A stretch of DNA of 64,000 nucleotides from Moniliella sp. 'wahieum' (taxonomy: Eukaryota). The notes beneath the pieces are model-generated. The model was not told the DNA's origin, searched no databases, and was given only the letters and a program-made list of their open reading frames with translations. This document shows positions 9,666-61,038 of this stretch, one piece after another (position 1 is the stretch's first letter; every line of letters starts with the position of its first letter). A program made the translations under genes and the position numbers. The stretch lies in contig RSEE01000028.1 in the NCBI GenBank assembly GCA_003971905.1, forward strand, positions 620,001 to 684,000, written 5' to 3'.

Positions 9666-12600
9666 GCCGATAGAGGGGGTGTGGGGGGGGTCGTGGGTCG
9701 TGGGTCGTGGGCGTAAAAAGGGGGGTCGGGGGGTGTATAAGAGGGGGTGGATGGCCTGTGGGAGCTGGTTGTGGGTGGGATGCGGCTATAAGAGAGAGCG
9801 CACCACCATCCCCCACACTCGGATTCGGACGGCACAATATCCCATCAAGCGAGTGTGTGGGCTGGCCAGCCAGTATAGGCCGATTATATCTCGTGCTCAC
9901 GCGCTCAAGCGCTCACGCATCAAGCAGGCCTCCCTCCGTCCGACTGCCCAGCCCAACACACCGACAGCCCTGAATGGCGGGACCTCCTGCCCTGTCAGCA
10001 CGCAGCCGTGTCCTGCCTTGCCACACACCAGGTGCGGTTGGGGGTCCAACGGGCGGGATTTACTTGGTTGAGTATACGTTTTTGAGTACTGCCTACTGCC
10101 TAGTACTCAGACTGAGTACTGCGTACACTTCCTACTGAATCATTATTATTCACTACCCTCAGACTCAGGTGGGCGGATGAGCTCGATGGGCACTCAGGCT
10201 CAGGCTTCAAGCTTGAAGCTTCAGGCTGAAGGCACTCGCCTCAGGCCCTCAGGCGAGCCCTGTTGTGCCTCGCCAGTATCCTCCGGATTCTCCGTTCGCC
10301 CAGCCTGCAACCGCAGATCGCCACTGCTCCCCTGGACCTGTGCCTGATGCCCCGCACGGCTCCGCGCCAGTGCCTGCTTTTCCAGGCCTGCCCCCCATCG
10401 CATTGCAAGTACGAGGTACTCTACGTACCACGTAGGCTTTCGGGTGGTACATGGTACATGGCATACAAAGGGTATACATGGTATGACCGGTGACCTTCTT
10501 AGATGGCAGGGATCTTAGTAGTTACTAGTAACACAGTAAGATCAATGATCCTAGGGTTTTTTTGTTCCGCCCCGCATGTTTCGCCCACAAGGCACGTACA
10601 CACACGCGCCGTGCCTGGCGTTGAATATATTATCGCGGTGGCGAGCACGGGGCTGCTGCGGGGCCGCGAACAGGACGACTGGGGAACAGAGTATCTATAC
10701 TGAGTAACTGTATGAGTACGAGTCTCAGTACGGAGGTACAGAGAGGCATACTGAGGTACTGAGGCCCTGAGAGCTTGGGGTTTGGGGCTTGGCCCTGAGC
10801 CTGAGGACAGATACGAGATGAGATCGATGATCAATTAACGACAAACTGAGGGAGATTGGCACGTGCACATATGTATGTATCCCACCGCCCAACAGCCTCT
10901 CTGTCTCCCTATCGGGGTCCGGCGACGGCCATCATGCATCATCTGCATCATCGATCATCCACATCGAGCATCTTCCCATACACTCCTGGAGGTGCACCGT
11001 GCCTGTATGATGGCCCTCGACCGAAGCCAGTGAGTATACTGAGTGGGCGAATGGATAAGCGCATGGTGGATATGATAGATGAGATCCGAGATCCGAGATC
11101 GAGGACCGCTCCTCAGCTCGTGGCCCCATCTGCGTGTCTACCTGCGGCACAGTGCTTGGTCTGGAAAAAGGCAGGATCGAGGATACTATGTGGGATCTAA
11201 GATGGCCCGCGGCGCTGCTCAACGGGAGCTAATCCAGGGAGCTATTTTGCTCACTGCACTCAGCGAGTACTTACTTCATTTCCCCACCAACCCAGGGTGC
11301 GGTTCTTGGCACTCAGTTGAGTACCTAACCGTCAGGTACCTTTTATGTATCAATCCCCCCCTCTCTCTGAGATTTAACCCCCTTTCTCTCAAACCCCGTT
11401 AATCAATCTTAGTCATCCTATATCTCTCCGGACACCGCAGGTACCAGCACTTACTGGTACCTTTCGAAGCCACGCGTCCATCCTGTATCATGCATCCCAA
11501 CATTCAAGCTTCAAGCTTCAGGCTTCAACGTTCAAGCTGCACGCCTTTTATAGGATTCGTAAAAAGGGTGCAGACGGGAGGGATACATGAAAAAGGAACG
11601 AAGGGGAGGGAAGAGGTGCAGCAAGGGTCTTCAGCTTCAATATGTTGAGAATGGAACGCGTGTGCTTTCAAACGCCTCAAGGTTCAAGCTTCAAGCCCTG
11701 CACCCACATCATCGACATCTTCTGAGGAATTGGGGGTCCCCGAACAACCTGTGGTCCAACCCACGGTTCAGGCAGTTTAGGCTGGCAACTCTCGTACGGT
11801 CTAGTATATAGTAGGGGTGAACTTGGTACAGTACACTGTCCACCCAAGTCATAAGAGAAACAGCAGGGATGTATAAGCATAGCAGACAAAAAAAAACACA
11901 AAGGAGGCACAAGTGAGGCGGTGGAACGTGGATCCTACTATCGTCTTACATACAAGATCTGACAAAACCTTAGATCTTACTACCGCAGGAAAAGAAAGGC
12001 AGATACGTACAGTGGATCAGTGGCCCAGCAGGGCAATCCCGACCCCTGAGGTCTCAGCCTGACGCCTGTAGCCATCCCGATCAGGTCCAGGGCAGTCCAC
12101 ACAACGTAGGTGTTCTGTATAGCCAACAGCCTGGGATACATGAGAGCCAAAGCGGTAGCAAAGATGAAAAAAAGATCGGGGTACCTGCAGTCCAGCAAAC
12201 TCGGTTCCGATTAACTCTTCTCGCGGCGTCTTCTTCGTAAACGACGGAGGGGAGAGAGTAGCCGAATCCGATACGCGCCCAGTGGCGAAACAGGATGTGC
12301 GTCCCCGTTCAACGTTCAACGAAGGGGAAGACAAAAGCGGTGATGGTCGTAGCGTCCCAACACAAATAAAACTCGGGCTAGGTCGCGGGTTGGACACCAG
12401 CGCCCAGTGGCACCCCAATCGTCCCGACGGTAGGCTGTGTTTTTATGGTCGATTGCGGCCACATTCTACCGAGACCTATAACAGACAAGCGGGGCAAACT
12501 CGGCGGCGAATTGGGTGACCAGCCATTAGTAGTGGGAGAGCAACTTTTGTTGGCGAGAAGCAAAACCGGTAAACGGCACGGTAAGCAGGTGCAGGCGATG

Positions 12601-13149: not shown

Positions 13150-14823
13150 CTAGTCGTCGTCCCAGTTGGGGTTCTGCTTCGGCGCCTTGATGCCCGCGGG
13201 CTTGGCCATGATGATCGAGTCTACGTTGAGCACCGAGATGGCGGCACCAGTAGCGTACTTGATCGCCCACAGCTTGGCCGACAGCGCATCCAGCACGCCT
13301 GCCTTGGTTGCCGACGTTACGCCCGTGTCATCGTTGTTGTCAATGTCCACACCCACCTCGGCCTTGCCGTCCTGGTGCGCGGCATACAAGCGCGCAATCA
13401 CCTCGGTCGCGTCCAGCCCCGCGTTCTCCGACAACGTCCGTGGCACCACCTCCAACGCCGCGCCAAAGCGCTTGATCGCATGCTGCGCCAGCCCGGGCGT
13501 GCGTTCCCCCAGCTTGGTCACCACCTGTGCCAACTCAATCTCCGTCGCACCTGCCCCAGGCACCAGGCGGGCGTCCTTGGTAAGCGACTTGACCACATTC
13601 ACACCATCGTCAATCGCTCGCTCCACATCGTCCAGCACATTCGACGTGGCACCACGCAAAACGATCGTAGCCATTTTCGGTTTGGCCTTGCCCCCCAGCC
13701 CTTGTGGGTCTTGGCGGAAGACAGTGACTCGGTCCCCACCAATCTCAACCACCTCGATGGCGTCGATCCAGCCAGCCTCCTCGGGCAGGGGCGCACCAAG
13801 CCGCGCAAGCGGCGTCGCACCCACCAAGCGCGCCAGACGCGCCACCTCGAACTTGGACAGGACCTTGATACAGAGAATGTTGTATCGGTTGAGGTAGTGG
13901 AGCGCCAACTCGCCCACGAAGATTGAGACACCACCACCTTCACCCCTGCATCGGCAATTTCCTTGATGGCCTTCTCCAGCTGTGTCTCTTCGCCCGCCGA
14001 AAAGGCTTGGAGCTCTTTTGCGTTGCAGCAGGACCGTCCCTTTGGTCTCTGTCTGGCTAATATCGATCCCCTGGGTAAAGATGGCCACCTTGCCTCCCTT
14101 GGGAAGGGCGCGCACCGAGCCTTCGGGTGTCTTACCAAATACCATACCGCGCAAGACTTGCGACTGCGCCAGCGATGCACCCAGAATCTTAACCACCCGC
14201 ACATTGTCCACATTAAACCCAGCGAGCGATGGCTTGGTCTTGTTCATGTCCGGTAAGACGAGCGAGATGGCCTGAGCAACGAGCGGAGCAAGTAGCGTCT
14301 CGTTGCCATACTGTTTGCTTGCTAGAACGGGCTGGATGGCCGTGGTGAGGGACTCAACCGTCGGTGGGGACGCCAACTGCGCCACCGAAAGTTCTTCCAA
14401 CGCTGCCAGCGCAGCGTCCCGCGCCGTCTCGTACCCGGCAATAATCTCGCTCGGGTGCAGGCCAAGCGTGACGAGCGCTTCGGCCTTCTTGAGCAGTTCA
14501 CCAGCCAAGATCAAAACCGTGTTCGTTGCATCGCCCATCTCGGCCTCTTGTTGTTGCGAGGCCATGACAAGGAGTTTTGCAGCGGGATGAACGACTTCGA
14601 GTTCGCGAACGATGGTGGCAGCGTCCGAGGTGACAAAGAGGCGCTCCAGATGGTTGATGACCATCTTGTTGCGGCCATTGGGGCCAAAGGAAGTACGCAC
14701 AATCTCACACAGCTCTGTGACGGCAGTGATGTTGCGCAACACGGCATCTTCAATGCCCGAGTACTGTTTGTACCCTTCTTTGAACAGCTGCGGACCGCCC
14801 GCACGGGGAACTTTGAGGGACAT
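13150..14823 (-). CDS. CCT8: T-complex protein 1 subunit theta (CCT chaperonin)
   Basis: MSLKVP start, RTSFGPNGRNKMVINHL, VTSDAATI, EMGDATN, ETKGTVLL and C-terminal NPNWDDD. Segment ~13920-14030 reads correctly in another frame (NAKELQAFSAGEETQLEKAIKEIADAGVKVVV), i.e. compensating indels. Confidence 0.96.
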   Translation of the reverse strand: MSLKVPRAGGPQLFKEGYKQYSGIEDAVLRNITAVTELCEIVRTSFGPNGRNKMVINHLERLFVTSDAATIVRELEVVHPAAKLLVMASQQQEAEMGDATNTVLILAGELLKKAEALVTLGLHPSEIIAGYETARDAALAALEELSVAQLASPPTVESLTTAIQPVLASKQYGNETLLAPLVAQAISLVLPDMNKTKPSLAGFNVDNVRVVKILGASLAQSQVLRGMVFGKTPEGSVRALPKGGKVAIFTQGIDISQTETKGTVLLQRKRAPSLFGGRRDTAGEGHQGNCRCRGEGGGVSIFVGELALHYLNRYNILCIKVLSKFEVARLARLVGATPLARLGAPLPEEAGWIDAIEVVEIGGDRVTVFRQDPQGLGGKAKPKMATIVLRGATSNVLDDVERAIDDGVNVVKSLTKDARLVPGAGATEIELAQVVTKLGERTPGLAQHAIKRFGAALEVVPRTLSENAGLDATEVIARLYAAHQDGKAEVGVDIDNNDDTGVTSATKAGVLDALSAKLWAIKYATGAAISVLNVDSIIMAKPAGIKAPKQNPNWDDD

Positions 14824-15202
14824 GGCGGCGGAAGGAGAGAAGGTGGTGGGAGGCCAAGCAGGAGGAGCGCCACGCAGCACGTCGCCCGCCGCGTCTCTCC
14901 GCTCTTGTGCTGCGCCGAAGCACACAGAACCCGCGCCACCGGAATTGGGTCTCTGGTTCCGCCCCGGCCGCCCCCTTGCAACGTTCAATAATGGGTGTTA
15001 ACACGTTCAGCGTTCGTTCAAATTTCAGGCTTTCAGACGCTGGTGCGATTGCAACTTTCAAACTCAGGTCTCTGCCTCCGTCCAGCCAACCATCTATTCA
15101 TCCATCTGCCTCCTCCCCGGTCTTTGTACGATCGATCCTTGTGCAGACATGCAGAATTCGCATCCCATCCGCTCGGCCAGCGCTCCTCCCCGCCCATTCC
15201 TC

Positions 15203-21146: not shown

Positions 21147-23564
21147 TTAAATGTGCCGTTGAACCTCCACGTCCTCGAACGCTTGAATCCGGTCGCCCGG
21201 CTCAAAGTCTTGGAAGTTGTCAAAGGCGATGCCGCATTCGGTGCCCTTACGCACCTCATTCACATCCTTCTTAAGATGCTTGAGGGTATCGAGTTTGCCA
21301 CGGTAAATCTCCTTTCGCTCCTCTCCCCGTAGGACACGCATCTGGCCGCGCGTTTTGATGGACCCATTGACGACGCGAGACCCCGCAACTTTGTGGAATT
21401 TGGCACCGCGAATGTTGATCTCAAATAGGGTAAGTACTTCGGCTTCCCCTAACACCTTGGTCTCGATCCGTGGTGGCAGCAGTTTCGACACTTCATCTCC
21501 TACCCGCTCAATCAAGCGGTAAATTACCTTGTTCTTCCATCACTTCCACCTTGGGAACTTTTCGCTCAGCCAACCTCCGCACGGCACCAGGAACGGCCAC
21601 GTTGAAGCAGACAATTTGAGCATTGGCCGTGCTCGCGAGCGAGACATCCGCCTCGCTCGGCGCGCCCACCGCTGCATCAATCACATGCACCCCCCCTCTT
21701 CGTTCCCAATCCCTTCCAGCGTCGCCTGTACCGCCTCTACCGAGCCTGACACATCTGCCCGGATGAGAATGTTGAGGATCTTGCGACCGGATTCTGCAGG
21801 GGTCGTAATTTCCTTCTGGGCCTTGGCGGCTTCTTGCTCGACCTTGGCGATCGCCTCGCCAATGACACGTTGCAACTGCGCTGGCGGGGGAGGAACAGCC
21901 GAAGGGTTGGGAATGGCTTGGCCACTGCTCAGGTCAAATTCGAGACCTAACCGCGCAGCACGGGCAGCAGCACGTTTCAAGTACTCCATCCGGTCCTTGC
22001 GACTGTCCACTTCGGACTTTTTGCGGCGCATCTCGTTGATCTCCATCACATCGTTAATCATGGCTTCCTCGGCTTCGCGGGTCTTGCGATCCTCGGCAGC
22101 CCGTTTCACATCCGCCTCCGACTTGGCCGACAATACCATGTCGCCTGCCTGTGGCAAATCTTTCCACCCCGATACGACCACAGGGTCCGCCGGGCCAGCT
22201 GTTTTGACCGTCTTGCCATTCGAATCAAACATGGCCTTCACCTTGCACCAGGACGTGCCAGCCAACAAAAACGAACCCGGTTTCAGTTGCCCCCGTTTGA
22301 CCAGCATCGTCGCCACGTTGCCCCTGCCCTTTTCCAAACGCGACTCGACCACCACGCCTTCGGGCAAACCATCCTTCTCGGCCCGGAGGTCCGCAAGTTC
22401 GGCCATCGCCGCCAACGTTTCTTCGAGTTCGTCGAGCCCTTGTCCGGTCTTGCCACTGACTGCAACCATGGGACATCCCCTCCGGCCTCTTCCAGCGGCA
22501 CTCCAGCTGCCAACAATTGGTTCTTGATCGTCTCCGGGTCGTTGCCGGGTTTGTCAATCTTGTTGAGTGCGACGACCATTTGGACCGAATTTTCTTCCCC
22601 CCCTTCTTCTGTGCGCGCATCCTGGTTGATGCGTGTCCAAGTATCAATCACCTCCTTGGTCTGTGGCATCACCCCATCGTCCGCCGCGACAACCAACACA
22701 ATAATGTCGGTCGTCTTGGCCCCGCGTGAACGCATCTCGGAAAACGCGGCATGGCCCGGCGTATCAAGAAAGGTGACTGTGGTGATTTCTCCTGTCCCCT
22801 TAGCAACGGTAGGGGAAACAGCACCCTTCTTGTCCTTCTTGTCCTTCTTATTGTTCTTGTTCTTGCCATCCTTGGCTTGCAATCGCAACCCCACCGGCAC
22901 GGAAAAGGCACCAATGTGCTGCGTAATCCCACCAGCCTCGCCGGCTGCTACAGAAGCGTTACGCAGCCGGTCCAAGAGCGTTGTCTTGCCATGGTCCACA
23001 TGGCCCATCACGGTCACAATCGGAGGACGGAGGGGTACGCGGGATTTGTCCGCCGCCGGTGGTCGCGGGTGCAAATCAAACCCAGCTTGCGACGCGATCG
23101 CCTCGCATCCCAAATCCAGCAACGCCATTTCCGCATCCGCAAAGGTGAGCATTGCGTCGGGTCGGTTGTCGGTCAAGCCGGCTCGGAGGATGGCATTTTG
23201 GAGCACGTCTGTTGATCGATGGGGGGGGGGGGAGGGGGGTTAATGGTTGGAATTGCTAACATACCAGCGAGGTACAGAAGTAAAACGTACGGATGCGCAG
23301 GTTGAGTTTACTGGCCAAGTTCTGGACACTGATAAAGGGAGGCACGTGGGCCGTGGGCGGGGCATACTCGACCGGTTTCTTCAGTCCTCGGCCGGTGCGG
23401 CCTACCCTTGGGGCGGCGCAGGCGGCGGGTGTGGTGTGCAGTGCGCGCGCGGGACGGGGAGGCGGGGAGGCAGGGGTGTGGACGAAGGGACGGTGAGGCG
23501 TGGGAGGAGAGAAGGAGCGCGGCGCATGGGCCGCCGCTCGCAGAAGAAGACGCGCCGAGGCCAT
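21147..23564 (-). CDS. IFM1: Mitochondrial translation initiation factor IF-2
   Basis: [70 protein letters not shown]. Intron 23209..23290; Arg-rich presequence. Confidence 0.95.
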
Positions 23565-24834: not shown

Positions 24835-25552
24835 GTTCGAAACACGAAAACGAGACACCACGTGTACTGTAAAAATCGTTTCCTTTTCTTCTTTTTGTGG
24901 GATGCGATGCAGGTAGAGACAAATATGGTATGGGTGTGGTGGCGGTACCAAAGTGTCTGTGGGCGGAGACGTTTGGTCTGTATACTTTTTGTTCCTGGCG
25001 GGCCTGGAACTTTTAAGAAGACAAGGCAGGGTTCAGCGTGGTGGATGGAGGATTGTAATCAGAGTCACACGTCATGTAACTTTGAGCTTCAAGCTTCAAG
25101 AACGGTTGCCCGTATCCTTTGCGAAACTGAAGACGTGGTGCCCCACTCGAAATGTCAAGAGCACTTCCAATTTCATGATGCATCGGAGGCGGAAAGTGTG
25201 GGGGCCTAAAGGCCCTCAGCAGCTTGAAGCTTCAACGTCAACGCCCTTGGATTGAACGCACAGTTGAATGATTAGCGCGAATCTTTCGCGTCCGCTGCGT
25301 GACAATCTACATCCATGTGTTGGCCACTGCTATACGCAGGCAGCAACGTGCGACTCCCAACTACTTCCGTCGTCGGGCTGGCTACGCCGACCTGACAGCG
25401 CGGTTTTGTGTGCGGGGAAGCTGACATAATCCACCCCTTGCATCTTCACCGACCCCCAGGCAATGGCCGACGCGATCACCGCGAACACGCGAACACAGCC
25501 ATCACCGCCATCCTCCTTCCCATCCTCCATCCCCTCTTCCCTCCCACCGCCC

Positions 25553-30650: not shown

Positions 30651-30673
30651 CTTGAAGCTTGAAGCTTGAAGCT
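30651..30673. repeat. (AAGCTT+G)n heptamer array
   Basis: CTTGAAGCTTGAAGCTTGAAGCT. Confidence 0.85.
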
Positions 30674-33345
30674 AGCTCTTGTTGGCAAGATCTGGATCCA
30701 CTTGGAAGAGCTTAATCATTCTACCTTTTGAAGCTTGGTGGATCCGATTGATGATCCTCCGTTCTCCGTGGCAAGATCTTCGCCCTGCCCATCGGGAGAC
30801 AGTTTGCATTCGTCTGGAGTTGGCCGGGCCACGATCATCCTGATTGAATAGGATTAATGATTCGCCAGGCCCCACAAGATCCCAAAAGGTCCCAGAAGAT
30901 CCCAGATCGGGAACGAAACTGACGCGGCGCGCGGGCCACCGGCCACCCACTTTATGGTGGCATCATGCATCATGCATCATGCAACATGCAACAGACATCA
31001 TATGGCCTGTCCCCACGGGGAAAGAGAACGCAGATCCACAGATGACAAACCGGTCCACGTGCTAGCAGCGGTGAACTTCGCCCGATGTCTCCGCCGTCCC
31101 CTGCCGTCTCATGTTTCGTCCCTAGTCCCTAGTCCTTCCCTGGTTTCTAGTCAGATTACTTGACCGGAGAGCAAACCCTGGTTGCCGGAGGCTCTCCTTA
31201 GGCCTTAGGCCTTAATTATTCTGAAGCCGACAGAGCCACAATCAATTACAGCACCCATCGATATACCCATCCTATACACACGCGCATCATTAACGGCATC
31301 ACTGCGTCATACCAGCACGTTGCAGGTTACGCCGATGAGCGACGGGATCATCAATCATCGATCATCTTAAATCATCGATCTGTCAACTTCCCAAGATCTC
31401 ATATCTCAACGGAGTCAACGTCACAGTCTACTGGCCTGACCGGCTGACCAGGAGCTGTTTGTTTCCTCTCGTGCAAAGGATGCTAGCAACATGCGTCACG
31501 AACAACTGTTGGTGGTTTCCGCTCTTCTGAGACACACTGACACGCTGACCGGCTCAGCGCTGACGCGCTGACGCGGACTCTGGTACCCCAGAGTACCTCA
31601 CGAATCACGTTCTTGGCAACCATTTCGCCGGGCAGATATTTATCTCAGATCTCCGCGCTCATTAATTCCTTACTCTCATTCGGAGTATTTAGCTCAACGC
31701 GCTCACCGTCAGTACTCAGTCTGAGTATACTCTCACTGAGTTCTCAGTGTCTGTACCAATTCGACTTTTTCCGAGCTGGTCTAACGCGGGCGGCCATCGA
31801 CGCGCGACGGTAGGCCACAGAGATTGCCCTCAATTGATTGAACATTGACTCCGGTGCTGGTAGGATAGCGATCCCTCGGTCTCTTTGAGAGAATATAGGT
31901 CGATCAGATAACTACGAGTAGCTGATGCTGTACGACAAAAGTGCTCGATCGTGCGTGCTCCAGGCCGGATAGTCGAAGCTGAATCCTTTGGGGACAGTAG
32001 AGGCAACGACTCAGTCTGGGTACTCAGGGTCGGGATCGCTTGTTTGGGCGCGTCATGCAATGCCCGCTTGCGCCTAGAGGGGGACCAGAATGACGTGTGA
32101 AAATGGCTGATATGTGACAGTGACGCGTGCGCGTAACACCCGAGCAAAAGCAATGTGGACCAGCTAGCAGGGGCTAGCGTTGGCTAGCTACCAAGTAGCA
32201 AACACGGCATCTATTGCATGTCACATATCATGTTCACACCGTGTTAGTAGTGACGCCGATTTGATATTGGGATCTGAGGATCTGAAGTGGAGAGCTCCAC
32301 CTGAGCTTCGTGGCAGGTGACTTGAAGCATGAGGTGCATGGAGCTTGGGCACCTGGGCGAGGGGCGGACTGGAGATTGCGCAGGTTGCGATAAGATCCAA
32401 ATTCCCCGAGCTGAAGCTGCTGAAGCTGCTGAGCGCCGAAGCTTCGCTCGAAGCTTGAAGAAAATGAAGCTCAGATCGAGGGAGAATGAGACGATTCGAA
32501 CAGCTAGTAACTAGGAATCGATGATCACTTCGACCCCCTAGTCACTTGAAGCTCTTGAAACGCTGAAGATTGATCGCTGATCCCGATAGACGAATGATGC
32601 GTGAAGGATGCCGCATGGCTGATCGATGGTCAGCAAAGTGTCGCGTGATAGGCGACAAGCGAAGCGTGATGTGTGCAGGACGTGCGGCGTTCTGGTACTG
32701 GCGCCGTGCGGGGCCTAGTTTCTTACCCCCGCACGCCGTCTCAACCGCAGTTGTCCCGCCCGCACGGGGCCAGTCTGCTGCGCTGCCCCACGACTCCCAA
32801 CTGGACCAACTTCGGTGGGATGCGGTAACCCCGCCCTCGCCTCGTCGCTTCCTCCCTCGGCATCATTCACATCATCCATCGCCCTCGCCTGGGTCTTGCT
32901 GGGCGGCATCGGCTTGTTTCCCTCCCCCCTCCAACCCTCCAACCCTCCCGCCACCACCACTTTCGTGCTTTGGCCCACACCAGTGCAACACCTGTGCACT
33001 GTTCAGCTCCCCCAACCATCAGTATTACCTATCGGGGGCATCCTCTTCTTCCGCCGCGGTTGGATCCTCCGTGCCTCCCACCGCGCAACTGGGCTTTCCA
33101 ACTACTGTGCCTGTCTGTGTCCCCTCTTCCAAGGTATGTCCCGCCCCTCCCCCCCATTCTCTCCCCATGAGCGGGTTGCGGGTCGACGTCACACTGCTGA
33201 CCGTATAACCAATCCTCAGCCTCATACCCACAACACACGCGGCAATCTCGTTTTTCTCCCCTCTTCTGACCTGCCTCGTGCGACGCGAGCTATTTTTCCC
33301 CACCACCTTTTTCCCCTCATCGCCGTACCAGTTTTGTACCTCGCC

Positions 33346-36904: not shown

Positions 36905-37635
36905 ATGGTGAGTAGCACCGCTATGCTGTTGTGCCTCAGGTGGTGGGCGTGCTAGATGACGGGCACCGACATGGATGTACACCCATGTGCCCCTTCGACA
37001 GCACCGGCTGCCGCCAGGAAGAGAAGAGACTAGGGACAACGCGACTGACTGGGATTGTTGTGCAGGGTGTGGACATTGCCAAGAAGCACGTCAAGAAGGG
37101 CAACCGCACGGCTCCCAAGTCGGAGGACCCCTACCTGCTCCTCTTGGTTAAGCTCTACCGCTACCTCGCCCGCCGCTCGGGAAGCAAGTTCAACAAGGCT
37201 ATCCTCAAGCGCCTGTATATGAGCAAGGTCAACCGCCCGCCCGTGTCGCTTTCGCGTCTGATTTATCTGACGCGCAATGCTGGCACCACCGGCGCGGACG
37301 CCAAGACGGTCGCCGTGGTGGGCACCATCACTGACGACAACCGTCTGCTCGAGGTCCCCCGGGTCTCGGTGGCCGCCCTGCGTTTCACCAAGACTGCCCG
37401 TGCCCGCATCCTGGCTTCCGGCGGCGAAGCCCTCACCTTTGACCAGCTCGCCCTGCGCGCCCCCATGGGCAAGAACGTGGTGCTGATCCGCGGCCCTAAG
37501 AACGCGCGCGAGGCCGTCAAGCACTTTGGCATGGGCCCTCACTCCAACGCCAAGCCTTATGTGCGTGGCAACGGCAAGTCGCGCAAGCGCGAGATGGCCC
37601 GTGGCCGCCGCAAGTCGCGCGGGTTCAAGGTGTAA
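36905..37635 (+). CDS. RPL18: 60S ribosomal protein L18 (eL18)
   Basis: ATG 36905-36907, intron 36908..37065 (GTGAGT..CAG), then [24 protein letters not shown]...[12 protein letters not shown]. Confidence 0.97.
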
Positions 37636-53540: not shown

Positions 53541-55401
<1,861 letters not shown>

Positions 55402-56517
55402 GGGGCGGGTGGTGGTGGGTGGGTGGAGGCGTCGGCGGGAGCGTCCTGCGTCTGCCGCTCCCTCGACCGCTGCGGCGCAGCCCACAGCGCCGCGCACACT
55501 GCCCCGTGCCCCCGTCCGCCCCGCCACACCCGCGGCGTGCATGAGGCATGCCACTCCGCTCACCCGTCGCCGCCCGTCACCAGACCGCCCCCCTTTTGAC
55601 ACCCAACAACAGCCGTTTTCCAGCTCCACTCGGTCCATTCGTCCATGCGTCTGCGTCTATCGGGAGGCTTCCGTCGTGTGGGGGAACGGGGAAGGGGGTT
55701 GCCTCATCGAAGCGCCGTGCAGCTCTGCACTGGACAGAAGAGGGGGCGGCGTGTAAGGTGCTCCTCCCCCCCAAGCAAGCGTTGCAAGGGCCGCCAGTGG
55801 AAACGCCTGGAGCTTTCCTGAAGCTTGAACCTTGAACGTTTGCGTTTGGACGCGTTGAGCCAGGCTGAGCTAAGCGTGCCTACTTTAACGTGCAAGCTTC
55901 AAACTTTGCGACTGCAAAAGACCTGAGCCTGAACATGCATCCCCCAGGAGCAGGGCCTGGTCGGTCTGGTCGATGGTGCGTGTGGAGCGGCAGTGCTCGT
56001 GCTCCATCCGGCTCGTTGGCAACATGCCTCTACAGGACCGACGCTGATGGAGGTGAAGAGGCTGGCACCGTTGGAGCTGTGAGGGATACGTGCCAACAGC
56101 GGCCCGGGCGAGACGCAACAGGACGCAGCCCCGCAGACGAGACGCTCGCTCTGCCGCATGAACGTTCACGGGCCCTGCCCCCGCCCGGCTGTCTGCCTCG
56201 GCGCGTCCTCTGGCACTCCACCCGTCTCGCACGGGCCCGGTCCATCCCATATGCCAAGGGGTTCAGTGAACGAACCCAGTATTCAGTGCCCGGTGTATAC
56301 TACGTGACGTGACGCTACTGCCACGATATTTATACGCTCCCCACCGCTTCCATCCGGCCCCCCCCCCCCCCCCCATCACCCTCACCACCTCATTTTCTCC
56401 AACGTACGTTGTTGTCGCCGCATGGCGCTTTTGCGCCAAACCCATCCCCCGCCTACGTTATATCCCGCTAACCCCGTATTATCCTCTTCTAACGCTGGCG
56501 CTAGGAAGAAAGTGCTC

Positions 56518-57147
56518 ATGTCGCCCCACCACGCTCCCAAAGTCATTGCCGTCGTCGGCGCCCTCGGCCGGGCCGGGTCGGAGATTGTAAAAGAATTTGC
56601 GGCACGTGGCCACAAAGTGATTGCGATTGGGCGCGTTCGGTGGCCGGATCCCTACGGTCCCGGGATCGTGCCGACGGAAGGCGATGCGTCGGATCCGGCA
56701 TCGTTGGCACCGTTTTGGAAGGAGCCAGTGCGCTGGTGAGCGCGAGGCGGTTCGATGTACCGGTGGAAACGTTGTTGGAGGCGATGGCGCCCGTAGGGAT
56801 CAACCGGTTGCTGGTGATTGGGGTGCAGCGGCGTTGTATGTTGAGCCCGGGATGCGGATGATTGATATATGCCCGACTTTGATCCCGAGTTCAAACAGTA
56901 TGTTTGCAAGGGAGTCCGGTGGATTGATGTGTTGGAGTCCACGCCTGCGTCGTTGGACTGGACGTACTTTGCGCCTCCAATGCGTTTGGTCCGGGCCCGC
57001 GCCTCGGTCGTTTCCGTCTCGGCCACGACAAACTCGTTGCCGACGAGTGTGGTGAGTCATCCCTCAGCATGGCCGACGCTGCGATTGCCATTGCCGATGC
57101 GATCGAGAAAGATCTGCACCGCCCAAGTTTTCACCGCGGCCTACTAA
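56518..57147 (+). CDS. YwnB/COG2910-type NAD(P)H-binding oxidoreductase (bacterial-like)
   Basis: Frames joined manually: IAVVGALGRAGSEIVKEFAARGHKVIAIGR, GDASD, RLLVIG.AAALYVEPG, LDWTYFAPP, GRFRLGHDKL, SMADAAIAIADAIE, FTAAY-stop. No intron seen. Confidence 0.82.
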
Positions 57148-57401
57148 GCGGGCCAACTGCTAGCTATCCTGTGTGGTATGGCTCGTACACCCACCGCGCC
57201 CTGTTATTTCCCCCACCTCTCTTATCTATATTGTAGCAGCCTTTTCATCAGCTTCCCACCTATAGTCACTGTGTGTTAATAAGTCAATGTGTCCTTATAA
57301 TGACTGCTTGCAAGCTTCAAGCTTCCCGACACCCAATAACGAATGACACCAGGAGTTCCCCCCAGACAACCATGTACTAACTAACCCATGTGCGAGGTGA
57401 G

Positions 57402-58859
57402 TTACTTCGCAAGGGGAGGGACGGCAACCGCAGCTGGCGCGCCTTGCCGGCTTTTGCTTCCGCAGGACCTTTGCGTCCGCGACCGCGAGGCTTCCGCGGC
57501 GCCGACGCGTCCGAGGCCTTGCCGGGACCCGAGCCTTGCTTGCACTCGACGCCTTGCCTGCACCCGACACCTTGCCTGTACCCGACGCCTTGCCTGCACC
57601 CGCTGCAGCCGGGCGGTCCTGACGCGGCCTGCGGCTGGACGGCCGCGGCGGGCGATCCTGCTCCTCCTCAGTGGGGGTGGGAGCTGGTACGCGGCCGGAG
57701 GTGGCCGTGGCATTTCGGGAATGGATTGGCCGATCAACCTCTCGATCGACTTTAAGTTGGGGACGTCGTCCTGGGAGACCAAGGAGACGGCGCTGCCCTC
57801 TGCGCCTGCGCGGGCAGTGCGACCGATCCGATGCACGTACTGTTCTGCCACGTCGGGCAGGGCGACATTGACCACGTGCGAGACGCCCTGGACGTCGATC
57901 CCGCGCGCGGCGATATCCGTTGCGCACAGGACGCGTACCTTGCCCGTTTTGAATCCCTCGAGGGCGGCCTGGCGAGCGGTCTGGGACTTGTTCCCGTGGA
58001 TGGCGGCGGCTGAGATGGAGGCCTTTTGGAGCGTAGCAGCAAACTTGTTGGCCTGGTGCTTCATCTCGGTAAAGAGGATGACACGGCTGAATGCCGGGTC
58101 AGAGAGCAAATCGACAGCCAATTGTCGCTTCTCCTTCTGGCCACAAAAGATGACGTTCTGCTTAATCTTTCCGCCGTCGTGGCAGCTGGGGTGACCTCGA
58201 CCCGAACAGGGTCGGGACGGAGAAGGGTGTGAGCCAACTGGGCCACCTTCGGGGGCATGGTAGCCGAAAAAAAGTAATTTTGCCGTTCCGACGCCGGCGG
58301 CAACTGAGCAACGATCCTGCGCACATCATGAATGAACCCCATATCCAACATCCGATCCGCTTCGTCCAGAACAAACGTTTCGACCTGTCGAAACGAACGT
58401 AGCCTTGGCCGTGCAGGTCAAGCAGACGACGTACGGGCGTAGCAATCAAAACGTCCAGCCCACCCTGCAAGGCGGTCGTCTGAGGCTTTGGCCGACGCCA
58501 CCGGAAATGACAGCGTGATGGATGCTCGATGGGCCCGAGCTGGGCAAGTGTTGGCTGTACTTGGCGATGGAACGGTCAATCTGGATGGCAAGCTCGCGGG
58601 TTGGGGTGACAATGAGGGCACGGAAAGCGTTGGTTACGCGCTTGACTGGGTGGGTGGAGAGACGCTGAAGGATGGGGAGAGTAAAGGCAGCAGTTTTGCC
58701 CGTACCGGTCTGGGCAATCCCCAATAGATCTTGGCCCGCGAGCGCAACAGGGATCGCCTGGGCCTGGATGGGGGTCGGATGGACATACCCAGCCATGGCA
58801 AGCGCCTGTTGCAGCTCGGGCCGCAGCCCGAGTGCGGTAAACTTGGTGCGGGTGTTCAT
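57402..58859 (-). CDS. rhlE: DEAD-box RNA helicase of bacterial RhlE type
   Basis: Q motif [73 protein letters not shown]. No intron seen; indels present. Confidence 0.88.
57533..57602 (-). repeat. 18-bp tandem repeat (~4 copies) in the helicase C-terminal tail
   Basis: Plus-strand unit GACGCCTTGCCTGCACCC with variants. Confidence 0.85.
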
Positions 58860-61038
58860 GGGCGGCTGTGGAGGGTGGAGTGGTGGGAGGGAGGCCAAAG
58901 AGAAAACACAAAGAAGAAATCCAAGGCCTGCTCTGCCCGCCCAACGGAAGAAAGGAGGGGGGCAGCCCTACGTGGACGACGGCACAAGTGGAGTCCATTC
59001 CATCGATCGGTGCAGACAAAACTTGCACTTTTCTTTAACTTTCAAAAGACGGGCTTCAAAGATTCAACGTGTTGTTTGTTTCCTGCCATGGTGGAAGCCA
59101 TGTTCAACATGTTGGACTTGACTGAATGTAGTAGTAGCGGTGTGCTGCTGCCACTCAAAGGGCTGTCGCACCCAATGGACGGGGCAGAACATGTGGGGCT
59201 GTGCGTACACCGCCGGAGAACCAAAAGGCCAACACACACACACGGCCATCCACAGCCAGCGCGAAAATTAAAGAGAACGTTTGGGGAGTGCAAAAGCGGT
59301 GCAGAGCCTGAGGGACAAGGACAACACTCCTTGGCCCCTCCCTAGAAACTTGAATTAGGAGCTTCAATAAGCTTCAAGCTTGAGCGCGCGGTCAATCTCA
59401 GTCCGGCCCCCTGCGTGCCGACAAAAGGAGGAGTTGCACGGTTTTACCTTGTAGGCCTTGTCCGGACTTTTATGCTCCTGCTGTAAGAGGCGGATAGGAG
59501 CTCTTTAGTATAGGTGTTTGTATGATACAGACACTAACTTACTAACGTCCGGTGGGCTCGCTGGTGATCCAGGTCGAGCATCTCTACTACGTCTGATGCA
59601 TCTCTTCTCCTTTTCAGACCGCAGTCTGGACGTCCGGTCCGTGTGTCGTCTTGTCCCCATGTTTTTGGCCTGCTGCGCCCAGCTTGTGCTATAGGCATGC
59701 AGAGCCATGTGGAGCCTTGCACGGAAGCTTTTTAGCCTAGTATATTAGGCTTTCTGCCCAAGGTCACAGTGGCCTTTAAGCTATAAGCCGCTGTTACATG
59801 TTATAAGATCGAATCAATCGCTCCCACGCGGCATACCTCTTTCCTACTACATCCTGTGGGGCATGTGACTAGCTCTAGAGACCATATCTCGCTCGCGTAC
59901 AAACAATCTCCTTCTCTACAACCTGCGAGGACCTGACCCAGTCATCGATCATCTACAATCAATGACCAACAATCATTATCACTTGACTACTAGTCAACGT
60001 CAACATTCAACGTTCAACTTGCGCTCCCGCACGACACACACCAAGCTCCCAACTGTCATGTCTTTCCAGCACCGATGCAGCGACGAGGAACTGCCCCAAG
60101 CGAGCAAAATAGGTAGGTACGAGAAGAGACTATGGCGGGAAATGGGGAGATCACAACGAGACAACAGTATGCGTGTTTTCTGCTGAAGAACTGACGAGGC
60201 GGTTGGGAGGAAGAGATATTGCGGGTAAATCCTGGGAAGGTATACGAGAGTGGGAATAAGGACGAAGGTAGCGGATGAAGTTTCATCCATTCAATCGGAG
60301 CTGACCGGCTGACTGGTTATCTTACATCCATCCATCCATCATGAAATAGCGCGACTGTGCCCCTCGGACGCCGGAAGTCCGTGCATGCGAGAGCCGGTTG
60401 GGTAGCACTTGACGAAAATCTCAAACATCCGGCGCCGCGCCGAGGCGCGGGGCGATTAGCGAGGCCTGAGGCACCGAGTTGCTCCTGGGGTACTCCGTAT
60501 TCACTAGCACTGCCCTGCTCAGCGCGCTCACCACTAGTCATCCTAAGGCCTAAGGCCTAATTAACTCCTAAGGCCTAATAGGTCCTCTGGCGCTCTCTGG
60601 CGATGGGGCTGAGCAGGCTGGGGGTTACGTTGTTGGGTGCGCGCGTGAGCGGAGTTTTGGTGCGTCCTGTGGCTTGCTTGGGAAGGCTTGGCGGTCATCG
60701 ATCATCGCCATCGGTCATTAATCATTGGCCTGACAAAAAGTCACAATATCATGCCACAGCCGCCCCGTGCTCCGCGGGGAGCACCGTGCGCGTTGAAAAT
60801 TAACTATTAACCTTGAATAATCATTAATCGTTAACCACATTGTGCTTACGATCGGCCAGAGTATAGATTCGATCCACACTGCCCCTGCGATCTGACGCCG
60901 AGACGTCAGAAGTCCGGTGGAGAGGGCGCAGGCCGGCGTGTGTGCCCCTGCGTCTTCCTCTCCATCGCGCGCACCTGCAGCTCGGCAACGGCTTTTGGTC
61001 TCCCAGGGGCGCAGAGGATCGATCTCGGAATGGAGGGA

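Follow-up and report, generated by a model that had tools for sequence, protein, structure and literature searches.

How does a DEAD-box RNA helicase of bacterial type come to lie among the genes of a fungus, and is the gene still intact there? The question is raised by a helicase-coding region on the minus strand, at 57402–58859, of a 64,000-nucleotide stretch of contig RSEE01000028.1 (assembly GCA_003971905.1) from Moniliella sp. 'wahieum'; we refer to this stretch as the window and count all positions from its first letter. An earlier note, made from the letters alone, had read the region as an apparently intronless, bacterial RhlE-type helicase gene in a fungal chromosome, acquired horizontally and possibly diverging in function. 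We find horizontal transfer of the helicase into the fungal chromosome to be well supported by sequence comparison. As the best overall explanation we propose, with confidence slightly better than even, that an alphaproteobacterial RhlE-like gene from a donor related to Aliidongia moved horizontally into a chromosome of the Ustilaginomycotina, and that the gene is probably intact, the breaks in its reading frame being errors of the assembly.

Results

When its frame is followed, the helicase can be read from an ATG at 58859 to a stop codon at 57402–57404, the latter in the frame of the last piece. In a frameshift-aware alignment with four bacterial references (P0003, P0004, P0010 and P0011) this reading is colinear with the homologues from the initial methionine through the whole core, leaving no room for an intron, and Pfam DEAD and Helicase_C as well as the NCBIfam models RhlE and RhlE2 recognise the region. 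To that extent the gene is intronless as described; it is not, however, a single open reading frame, since three-frame translation and the frameshift-aware alignment place three frame changes within the core, the tail perhaps holding another. No in-frame stop occurs across the 482 codons once the frame is followed.

The coding region falls into four pieces, all on the minus strand. The first (58488–58859) carries the Q motif, motif I (AQTGTGKT), motif Ia (PTRELA) and the GG motif, and matches Pfam DEAD over 1–71 of 167 and NCBIfam RhlE with 120 bits. Alignment with homologues identifies the second, a stretch of 33 residues (58387–58485) with an altered motif Ib that reads TPVRR where relatives read TPGR. 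The third (58166–58384) contains motif II (DEAD), the string DMGFIHD and motif III (SAT), and matches Pfam DEAD over 114–166 of 167, NCBIfam RhlE2 with 91 bits and RhlE with 77 bits; the fourth (57405–58160) comprises the second RecA-like domain, with motifs IV, V and VI (Helicase_C, 96 bits), and a basic low-complexity tail. At the first frame break, in a short run of A (58486–58487), as at the second (58385–58386) and the third (58161–58165), the DNA is one base short with respect to the homologues. P0003, P0004 and P0011 agree in placing the first at 58487 and the second at 58386 (58484 and 58380, respectively, with P0010), and all four references place the third at 58162. A possible fourth break at 57688–57689 is likewise proposed by all four references; it lies in the low-complexity tail and is uncertain.

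The tail comprises about 100 residues after the core, basic and of low complexity, and rich in R, A, Q and G; its reading frame, and hence the true stop codon, is uncertain. Within it lies an 18-nucleotide tandem repeat of 5.2 copies with 84% matches (57511–57602, minus strand), beside which a weaker 17-nucleotide repeat is seen at 57473–57518. At the other end of the gene, the leader upstream of the ATG (58860–58960, minus strand) is rich in pyrimidines, as the earlier note had observed: they make up 82% of the 60 nucleotides preceding the start codon, and neither a purine-rich ribosome-binding site nor a match to a sigma-70-like promoter was found in it.

Several lines of evidence place the helicase with bacterial RhlE-like proteins. 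Pfam DEAD (PF00270) is matched by two of the pieces, with 73 and 47 bits, and Helicase_C (PF00271) with 96 bits, all above the gathering scores. The core motifs by which DEAD-box proteins are generally defined run from Q to VI, and direct reading of the translation finds Q, I, Ia, GG, II, III, IV, V and VI in place, with Ib reading TPVRR. For all three of the pieces that score against NCBIfam the top model is RhlE (PRK10590) or RhlE2; the 33-residue piece gives no match. Together the three scoring pieces amount to about 364 bits, below the cut-off of 743 bits for the RhlE equivalog. The bacterial sisters of the helicase likewise miss this cut-off (501–524 bits; P0011, 502; P0003, 501), so that it marks equivalogs of the E. 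coli type and not the wider RhlE-like group. On the evidence of these scores the right label for the gene is "RhlE-like", not that of a strict equivalog.

We searched the 239-residue C-terminal piece against 5.8 billion proteins in two length classes (E <= 1e-10), which gave 7999 and 7957 matches, and read the origins of the matches from the best 120 of each set (240 listed). Every protein with a named source among these 240 is bacterial, most are named RhlE, and identities range from 47 to 66%. The organisms represented include Aliidongia, Rhodospirillales, Arenibaculum, Kiloniellaceae, Beijerinckiaceae, Caulobacterales and Myxococcales, and no bacterium among the listed matches comes closer to the helicase than 66–67%. 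When the frame breaks are taken into account, 269 of 431 aligned positions are identical to P0004 and 262 of 397 to P0003. A further search of prokaryote genomes and metagenomes with peptides specific to the window returned 20 and 11 relatives, respectively, none above 60–61% identity, and neither a closer copy nor a fungal contig was found there. The top-scoring protein, P0002 (479 residues), was rejected as a closer relative, its score being owed to a duplicated Helicase_C segment; the duplication, which occurs in a single protein predicted from a 2.6-kb contig, is probably an artefact of assembly or prediction. A Protein Atlas result for the helicase C-domain ("Helicase_C, Bacteria" only) was not usable for origin.

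The same C-terminal piece separates the helicase from native eukaryotic families. Bacterial RhlE-like proteins score 164–189 bits against it, whereas solved structures reach at most 95 bits (CshA, DeaD, Hera and SrmB) and solved eukaryotic DEAD-box proteins, Dbp2, eIF4A, Prp28, Dbp10 and Sub2 among them, 77–92 bits; the values for yeast Dbp2 (86 bits), eIF4A (80–85) and Dbp10 (86) are about half those of the bacterial RhlE-like proteins. Native fungal DEAD-box proteins represented by solved structures (Dbp2, eIF4A, Prp28, Dbp10, Sub2, Has1 and Dhh1; 77–86 bits) share the fold and the core motifs, but the window gene differs from them in having neither introns nor extensions of the eukaryotic type. 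These scores, together with the nesting among Alphaproteobacteria described below, bear out the earlier assignment to a bacterial RhlE-type helicase and not to a native fungal family. The motif strings quoted for that assignment, FTEMKH and VNVALP included, are all present in the three-frame translation. The suggestion that these two strings are alterations is not supported: both fall at positions that vary among bacterial relatives too, outside the 136 columns that are conserved to at least 95%.

Trees were computed by a quick method on 78 rows and by careful maximum likelihood (IQ-TREE) on 33 rows; neither contains eukaryotic DEAD-box sequences, the comparison with which rests on the bit scores and not on a tree. 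Both the frameshift-corrected comparison and the maximum-likelihood tree group the helicase with bacterial RhlE-like proteins. In the IQ-TREE analysis the helicase is sister to seven rows of the Aliidongia type (ultrafast bootstrap 98, SH-aLRT 92), and this group lies inside a clade of 20 rows with support of 100/98; the 78-row tree agrees with this position. Aliidongia is a member of the Dongiaceae, in the Rhodospirillales of the Alphaproteobacteria. At 0.82 substitutions per site, the end branch of the helicase compares with a median of 0.21, its sisters lying about 0.3 from the shared node. Of 136 columns conserved to at least 95% in 119 bacterial relatives, the helicase keeps 130, from which it follows that purifying selection acted on it for most of this long branch.

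The placement bears on whether the gene could have been inherited vertically, either as an old mitochondrial (that is, alphaproteobacterial) gene or as an ancient fungal DEAD-box family kept in one lineage. Such an origin would accord with nearest relatives in the Alphaproteobacteria and with a long branch, and according to excerpts of PMC9887622 the eukaryotic DDX helicases as a whole are believed to descend from DEAD/RhlE proteins of prokaryotes. The helicase, however, nests in one family-level clade (the 98/92 and 100/98 nodes) and is not basal to the Alphaproteobacteria. Moreover, no eukaryotic protein, fungal ones included, stands among the 240 best listed matches, although a CCT8 search of the same database gives many fungal proteomes, and the solved eukaryotic DEAD-box proteins score only about half as high as the bacterial RhlE-like proteins. 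We disfavour vertical inheritance and consider it the least credible of the explanations weighed here.

If the gene was instead transferred, the next question is whether it truly resides in the fungal chromosome. Ordinary eukaryotic genes are found in the window, including those for CCT8, triosephosphate isomerase (TIM), ribosomal protein L18e, mitochondrial carriers, mitochondrial IF2 (mtIF2) and ARS2, among others. CCT8 (13153–14997) is 71% identical to its counterpart in Pseudozyma hubeiensis and 70% to that in Thecaphora frezii; its named top matches all come from Ustilaginomycotina or other Basidiomycota, and one further relative reaches 89%. These matches identify the host as a member of the Ustilaginomycotina, among the basidiomycetes.

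In the assembly the helicase is linked to host genes at its left (a kinase, CCT8 and others) and to host-like DNA at its right. Pieces of a protein-kinase domain lie at 53.5–54.7 kb. Between them and the helicase, the stretch 54990–55760 has a GC content of 0.70–0.72 and low complexity, with several open frames on both strands, those of one strand rich in Gly and Arg and those of the other in Pro; the low-complexity N-terminal portion of the kinase may be encoded there. The immediate left neighbour of the helicase, on the plus strand and convergent with it, is a broken gene for an NAD(P)H-binding protein (NmrA/NAD_binding_10-like, about 205 residues; 56518–57147), which shows 47% identity over its full length to the 203-residue P0373. 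The earlier note had set the helicase between fungal CDC7 and RPL14. Host-like DNA does lie on both sides, but the neighbours were in part misnamed and the NAD(P)H-binding gene went unmentioned; no L14 domain occurs in open reading frames of at least 30 residues at 59.4–62.5 kb, or of at least 70 residues up to 64 kb, and the sole ribosomal protein seen is L18e, at 36916–37632. A possible short coding stretch appears at 61.1–61.5 kb in the right flank.

Two compositional signatures tie the flanks of the helicase to the host. In tetranucleotide usage the right flank resembles host DNA (r=0.75) more closely than pooled bacterial loci (r=0.24), and other host segments behave alike. Ten places in the window, all of them intergenic, carry arrays of a heptamer (TTCAAGC or GCTTCAA, core AAGCTTCAAGCTT); with at most one mismatch allowed, AAGCTTCAAGCTT matches 18 times in the window where 0.03 matches are expected, and none of 100 shuffles reaches 18. 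Eight of the arrays are at 10202–10221, 11506–11525, 11679–11691, 25084–25096, 25220–25232, 30655–30674, 55821–55833 and 55894–55906. The remaining two flank the helicase, as had been noted before: one, with the GCTTCAA unit, about 80 nucleotides downstream of the stop codon (57306–57325), the other about 500 nucleotides upstream of the ATG (59360–59381). Some copies of the heptamer contain GAAnnTTC, resembling a pair of heat-shock element half-sites.

The codons of the helicase point in the same direction. Its GC content at third codon positions (GC3) is 0.71, inside the host range of 0.66–0.85; GC3 alone does not discriminate, the bacterial rhlE genes spanning 0.34–0.93. Conditional on the amino acid, codon choice favours the host model over the bacterial ones, with gains in log-likelihood per codon of +0.047 and +0.056. 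Both figures lie inside the spread of 14 host segments; for bacterial rhlE genes whose GC3 is close to that of the helicase, the gain is about 0. As for a larger co-transferred block or shared synteny, the flanks at 55000–57400 and 58860–60000 gave no match by tblastx to 31 bacterial loci.

These observations can be set against an assembly artefact, in which a bacterial contaminant would have been falsely joined into a fungal contig. The nearest relatives are indeed soil bacteria, the base quality of the assembly is low, and the right flank holds no recognisable gene. However, the stretch of bacterial character is internal and measures only about 1.5 kb, and a chimeric join is unlikely because two false junctions would be needed around an insert of that size that looks adapted to the host. 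Host tetranucleotide signature in both flanks, heptamer arrays within 80 and about 500 nucleotides, host-like codon usage and a leader without bacterial signals all argue against contamination, as do the ceiling of 66–67% identity to any bacterium among the listed matches and the want of similarity between the flanks and the DNA around bacterial rhlE genes. We regard an artefact of this kind as very improbable, though less so than vertical inheritance.

A closer contest concerns the frame breaks. We compared them with those in host genes of the same window. CCT8 has two (13919–14025), and the out-of-frame stretch still encodes a conserved peptide; once both are corrected, 526 of 556 positions are identical to P0243. 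At least three frame changes interrupt the gene for mitochondrial IF2 (about 21545, 21690 and 22470–22510), with no intron-sized gap and one of them at a run of seven G, and at least one interrupts the kinase (about 54484), within 32 nucleotides that must hold 15 profile positions and so exclude an intron. Each of the eight breaks in the helicase and the NAD(P)H-binding gene beside it amounts to the loss of one base, and nonsense codons are found neither in the helicase nor in the aligned part of the neighbour. In a gene that is truly decaying, substitutions normally outnumber indels several-fold, and damage consisting of indels only points to sequencing error. The assembly seems to contain frequent single-base deletion errors. 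Because essential host genes break likewise, the frame breaks of the helicase are weak evidence of gene death; they most probably reflect single bases wrongly deleted in the assembly, and the real gene, as far as can be told from the sequence, is probably intact.

A number of observations weigh against this conclusion or against the transfer and integration that it presupposes. Breaks are denser in the helicase (three to four in 1.46 kb, or 2–3 per kb) and in its neighbour (four to five in 0.63 kb, about 7 per kb) than in CCT8, mtIF2, TIM and L18e together (about five in about 4.8 kb, or about 1 per kb), although the sample is small and local GC content there is the highest in the window; the higher density could mean real decay. 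The helicase differs at six of the strongly conserved positions, where bacterial relatives have 1.0 mismatches on average and 7 at most. Motif Ib reads TPVRR where at least 95% of the 119 bacterial relatives read TPGR, and since this change is a three-base gain plus a substitution, it would not be explained by a deletion-prone error process. In its own tetranucleotide usage the helicase stands between host and bacteria (r=0.61 and 0.53, respectively), and the right flank, at 59.4–64 kb, contains no gene that Pfam recognises and, outside the possible coding stretch, has weak codon periodicity. At the protein level, no orthologue in another fungus was seen among the 240 best listed matches. Finally, we infer the integration of the helicase from the assembly context.

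Part of this evidence can be gathered into a different account, which accepts the same transfer and a true integration but holds that the helicase is now a pseudogene, its breaks being real and its NAD(P)H-binding neighbour decaying too. A break density about three times that of the four host genes combined, the altered motif Ib and the long end branch would all fit, and among the matches listed the protein database contains no product of the gene or of an orthologue. Set against this are the absence of any in-frame stop from the helicase codons and the aligned neighbour, the single-base character of all eight breaks with like breaks in essential host genes, and the preservation of all but six of the 136 strongly conserved positions. 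We consider the pseudogene account unlikely, though it is the most serious of the alternatives, and judge an intact gene distinctly, if not overwhelmingly, the more probable of the two states.

Discussion

The closest known counterparts of the helicase are the RhlE proteins of the Aliidongia type (P0011 from A. dinghuensis, P0009 from Aliidongia sp., and P0003–P0008), which are colinear with it, share its start and are 62–66% identical to it. The two have signature strings and a basic low-complexity C-terminal tail in common and form sister groups in the tree. Unlike those proteins, the window copy stands in a fungal genome, with host-like codons, a leader of the fungal type and a branch about three times longer, and it has TPVRR in place of TPGR, the 18-nucleotide repeat in its tail and three to four frame breaks in the assembly. 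More distant are E. coli RhlE (PRK10590) and the RhlE1 and RhlE2 proteins of Pseudomonas aeruginosa (NF053711 and NF053710; PMC8266600, PMC11260450), the best models for each scorable piece, which have the same architecture of a two-RecA core and a disordered basic tail; from the E. coli equivalog the helicase is set apart by its summed score of about 364 bits against the cut-off of 743. In excerpts of PMC11260450, the functional specificity of the Pseudomonas RhlE proteins is set by their disordered tails.

What might the ancestral protein have done? Bacterial RhlE aids ribosome assembly, according to work cited in the portion of PMC9887622 available to us, and excerpts of PMC5472812 describe RhlE of Caulobacter crescentus as a cold-shock helicase that joins the RNA degradosome in the cold. 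Caulobacter is also alphaproteobacterial, and RNA remodelling at low temperature is a likely kind of ancestral role; the Caulobacterales nonetheless fall in a different clade of the tree, and a fungus has no RNase E degradosome, so that a role dependent on that partner would have been lost or replaced.

We envisage the following history and mode of action. The donor would have been an alphaproteobacterium related to Aliidongia (Rhodospirillales, Dongiaceae), and the gene would since have resided in the fungus long enough for its codon usage to become host-like and for it to gain a pyrimidine-rich leader of the fungal type, while evolving about three times faster than its bacterial sisters. If, as we infer, the helicase is expressed and active, then by homology its two RecA-like domains would close on ATP and single-stranded RNA and so open or remodel duplexes locally, and its basic disordered tail, with the 5.2-copy repeat, may add affinity for RNA. 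Any role that it has retained would presumably be independent of partners, or new, since the fungus has none of the bacterial ones.

A stronger version of the transfer hypothesis, to which we give somewhat less than an even chance, is that this RhlE has been domesticated as a working nuclear gene: intact once the assembly errors are taken away, transcribed from a fungal promoter, quickly evolving, its RNA-binding motif Ib remodelled and the repeat in its disordered tail expanded, and serving a new role in RNA metabolism. Such a role could be, for example, in adaptation to cold or stress, carried out without the bacterial degradosome partners. The earlier suggestion that the protein is diverging in function is not supported at present, as it rests on the long branch and on one altered motif (Ib).

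The RhlE-like DEAD-box family and gene transfer from bacteria to fungi are both already known. Such transfer is well documented and involves mostly metabolic enzymes and transporters. We found no report of the transfer of RhlE or of any other DEAD-box protein into fungi in a literature search that subscription journals and supplements lay outside; if true, the case presented here would be, as far as the literature searched goes, the first to be described in which a fungus acquired a DEAD-box RNA helicase from a bacterium. To count the gene as "informational", and hence of a class rarely transferred, overstates the surprise: RhlE is a dispensable accessory helicase that acts alone, and its transfer puts no strain on the complexity hypothesis.

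There is a lesson for annotation as well, in that frameshifts in this assembly should not be called pseudogenes unless reads support them; it is probable that many genes, the helicase among them, were missed or broken when this genome was annotated automatically. For the biology of the family, the consequence would be of another kind. If the transferred helicase has stayed constrained, a eukaryotic cell can accommodate an RNA-remodelling enzyme that works on its own, and the fungus would offer a natural experiment in how RhlE behaves without RNase E or bacterial ribosomes.

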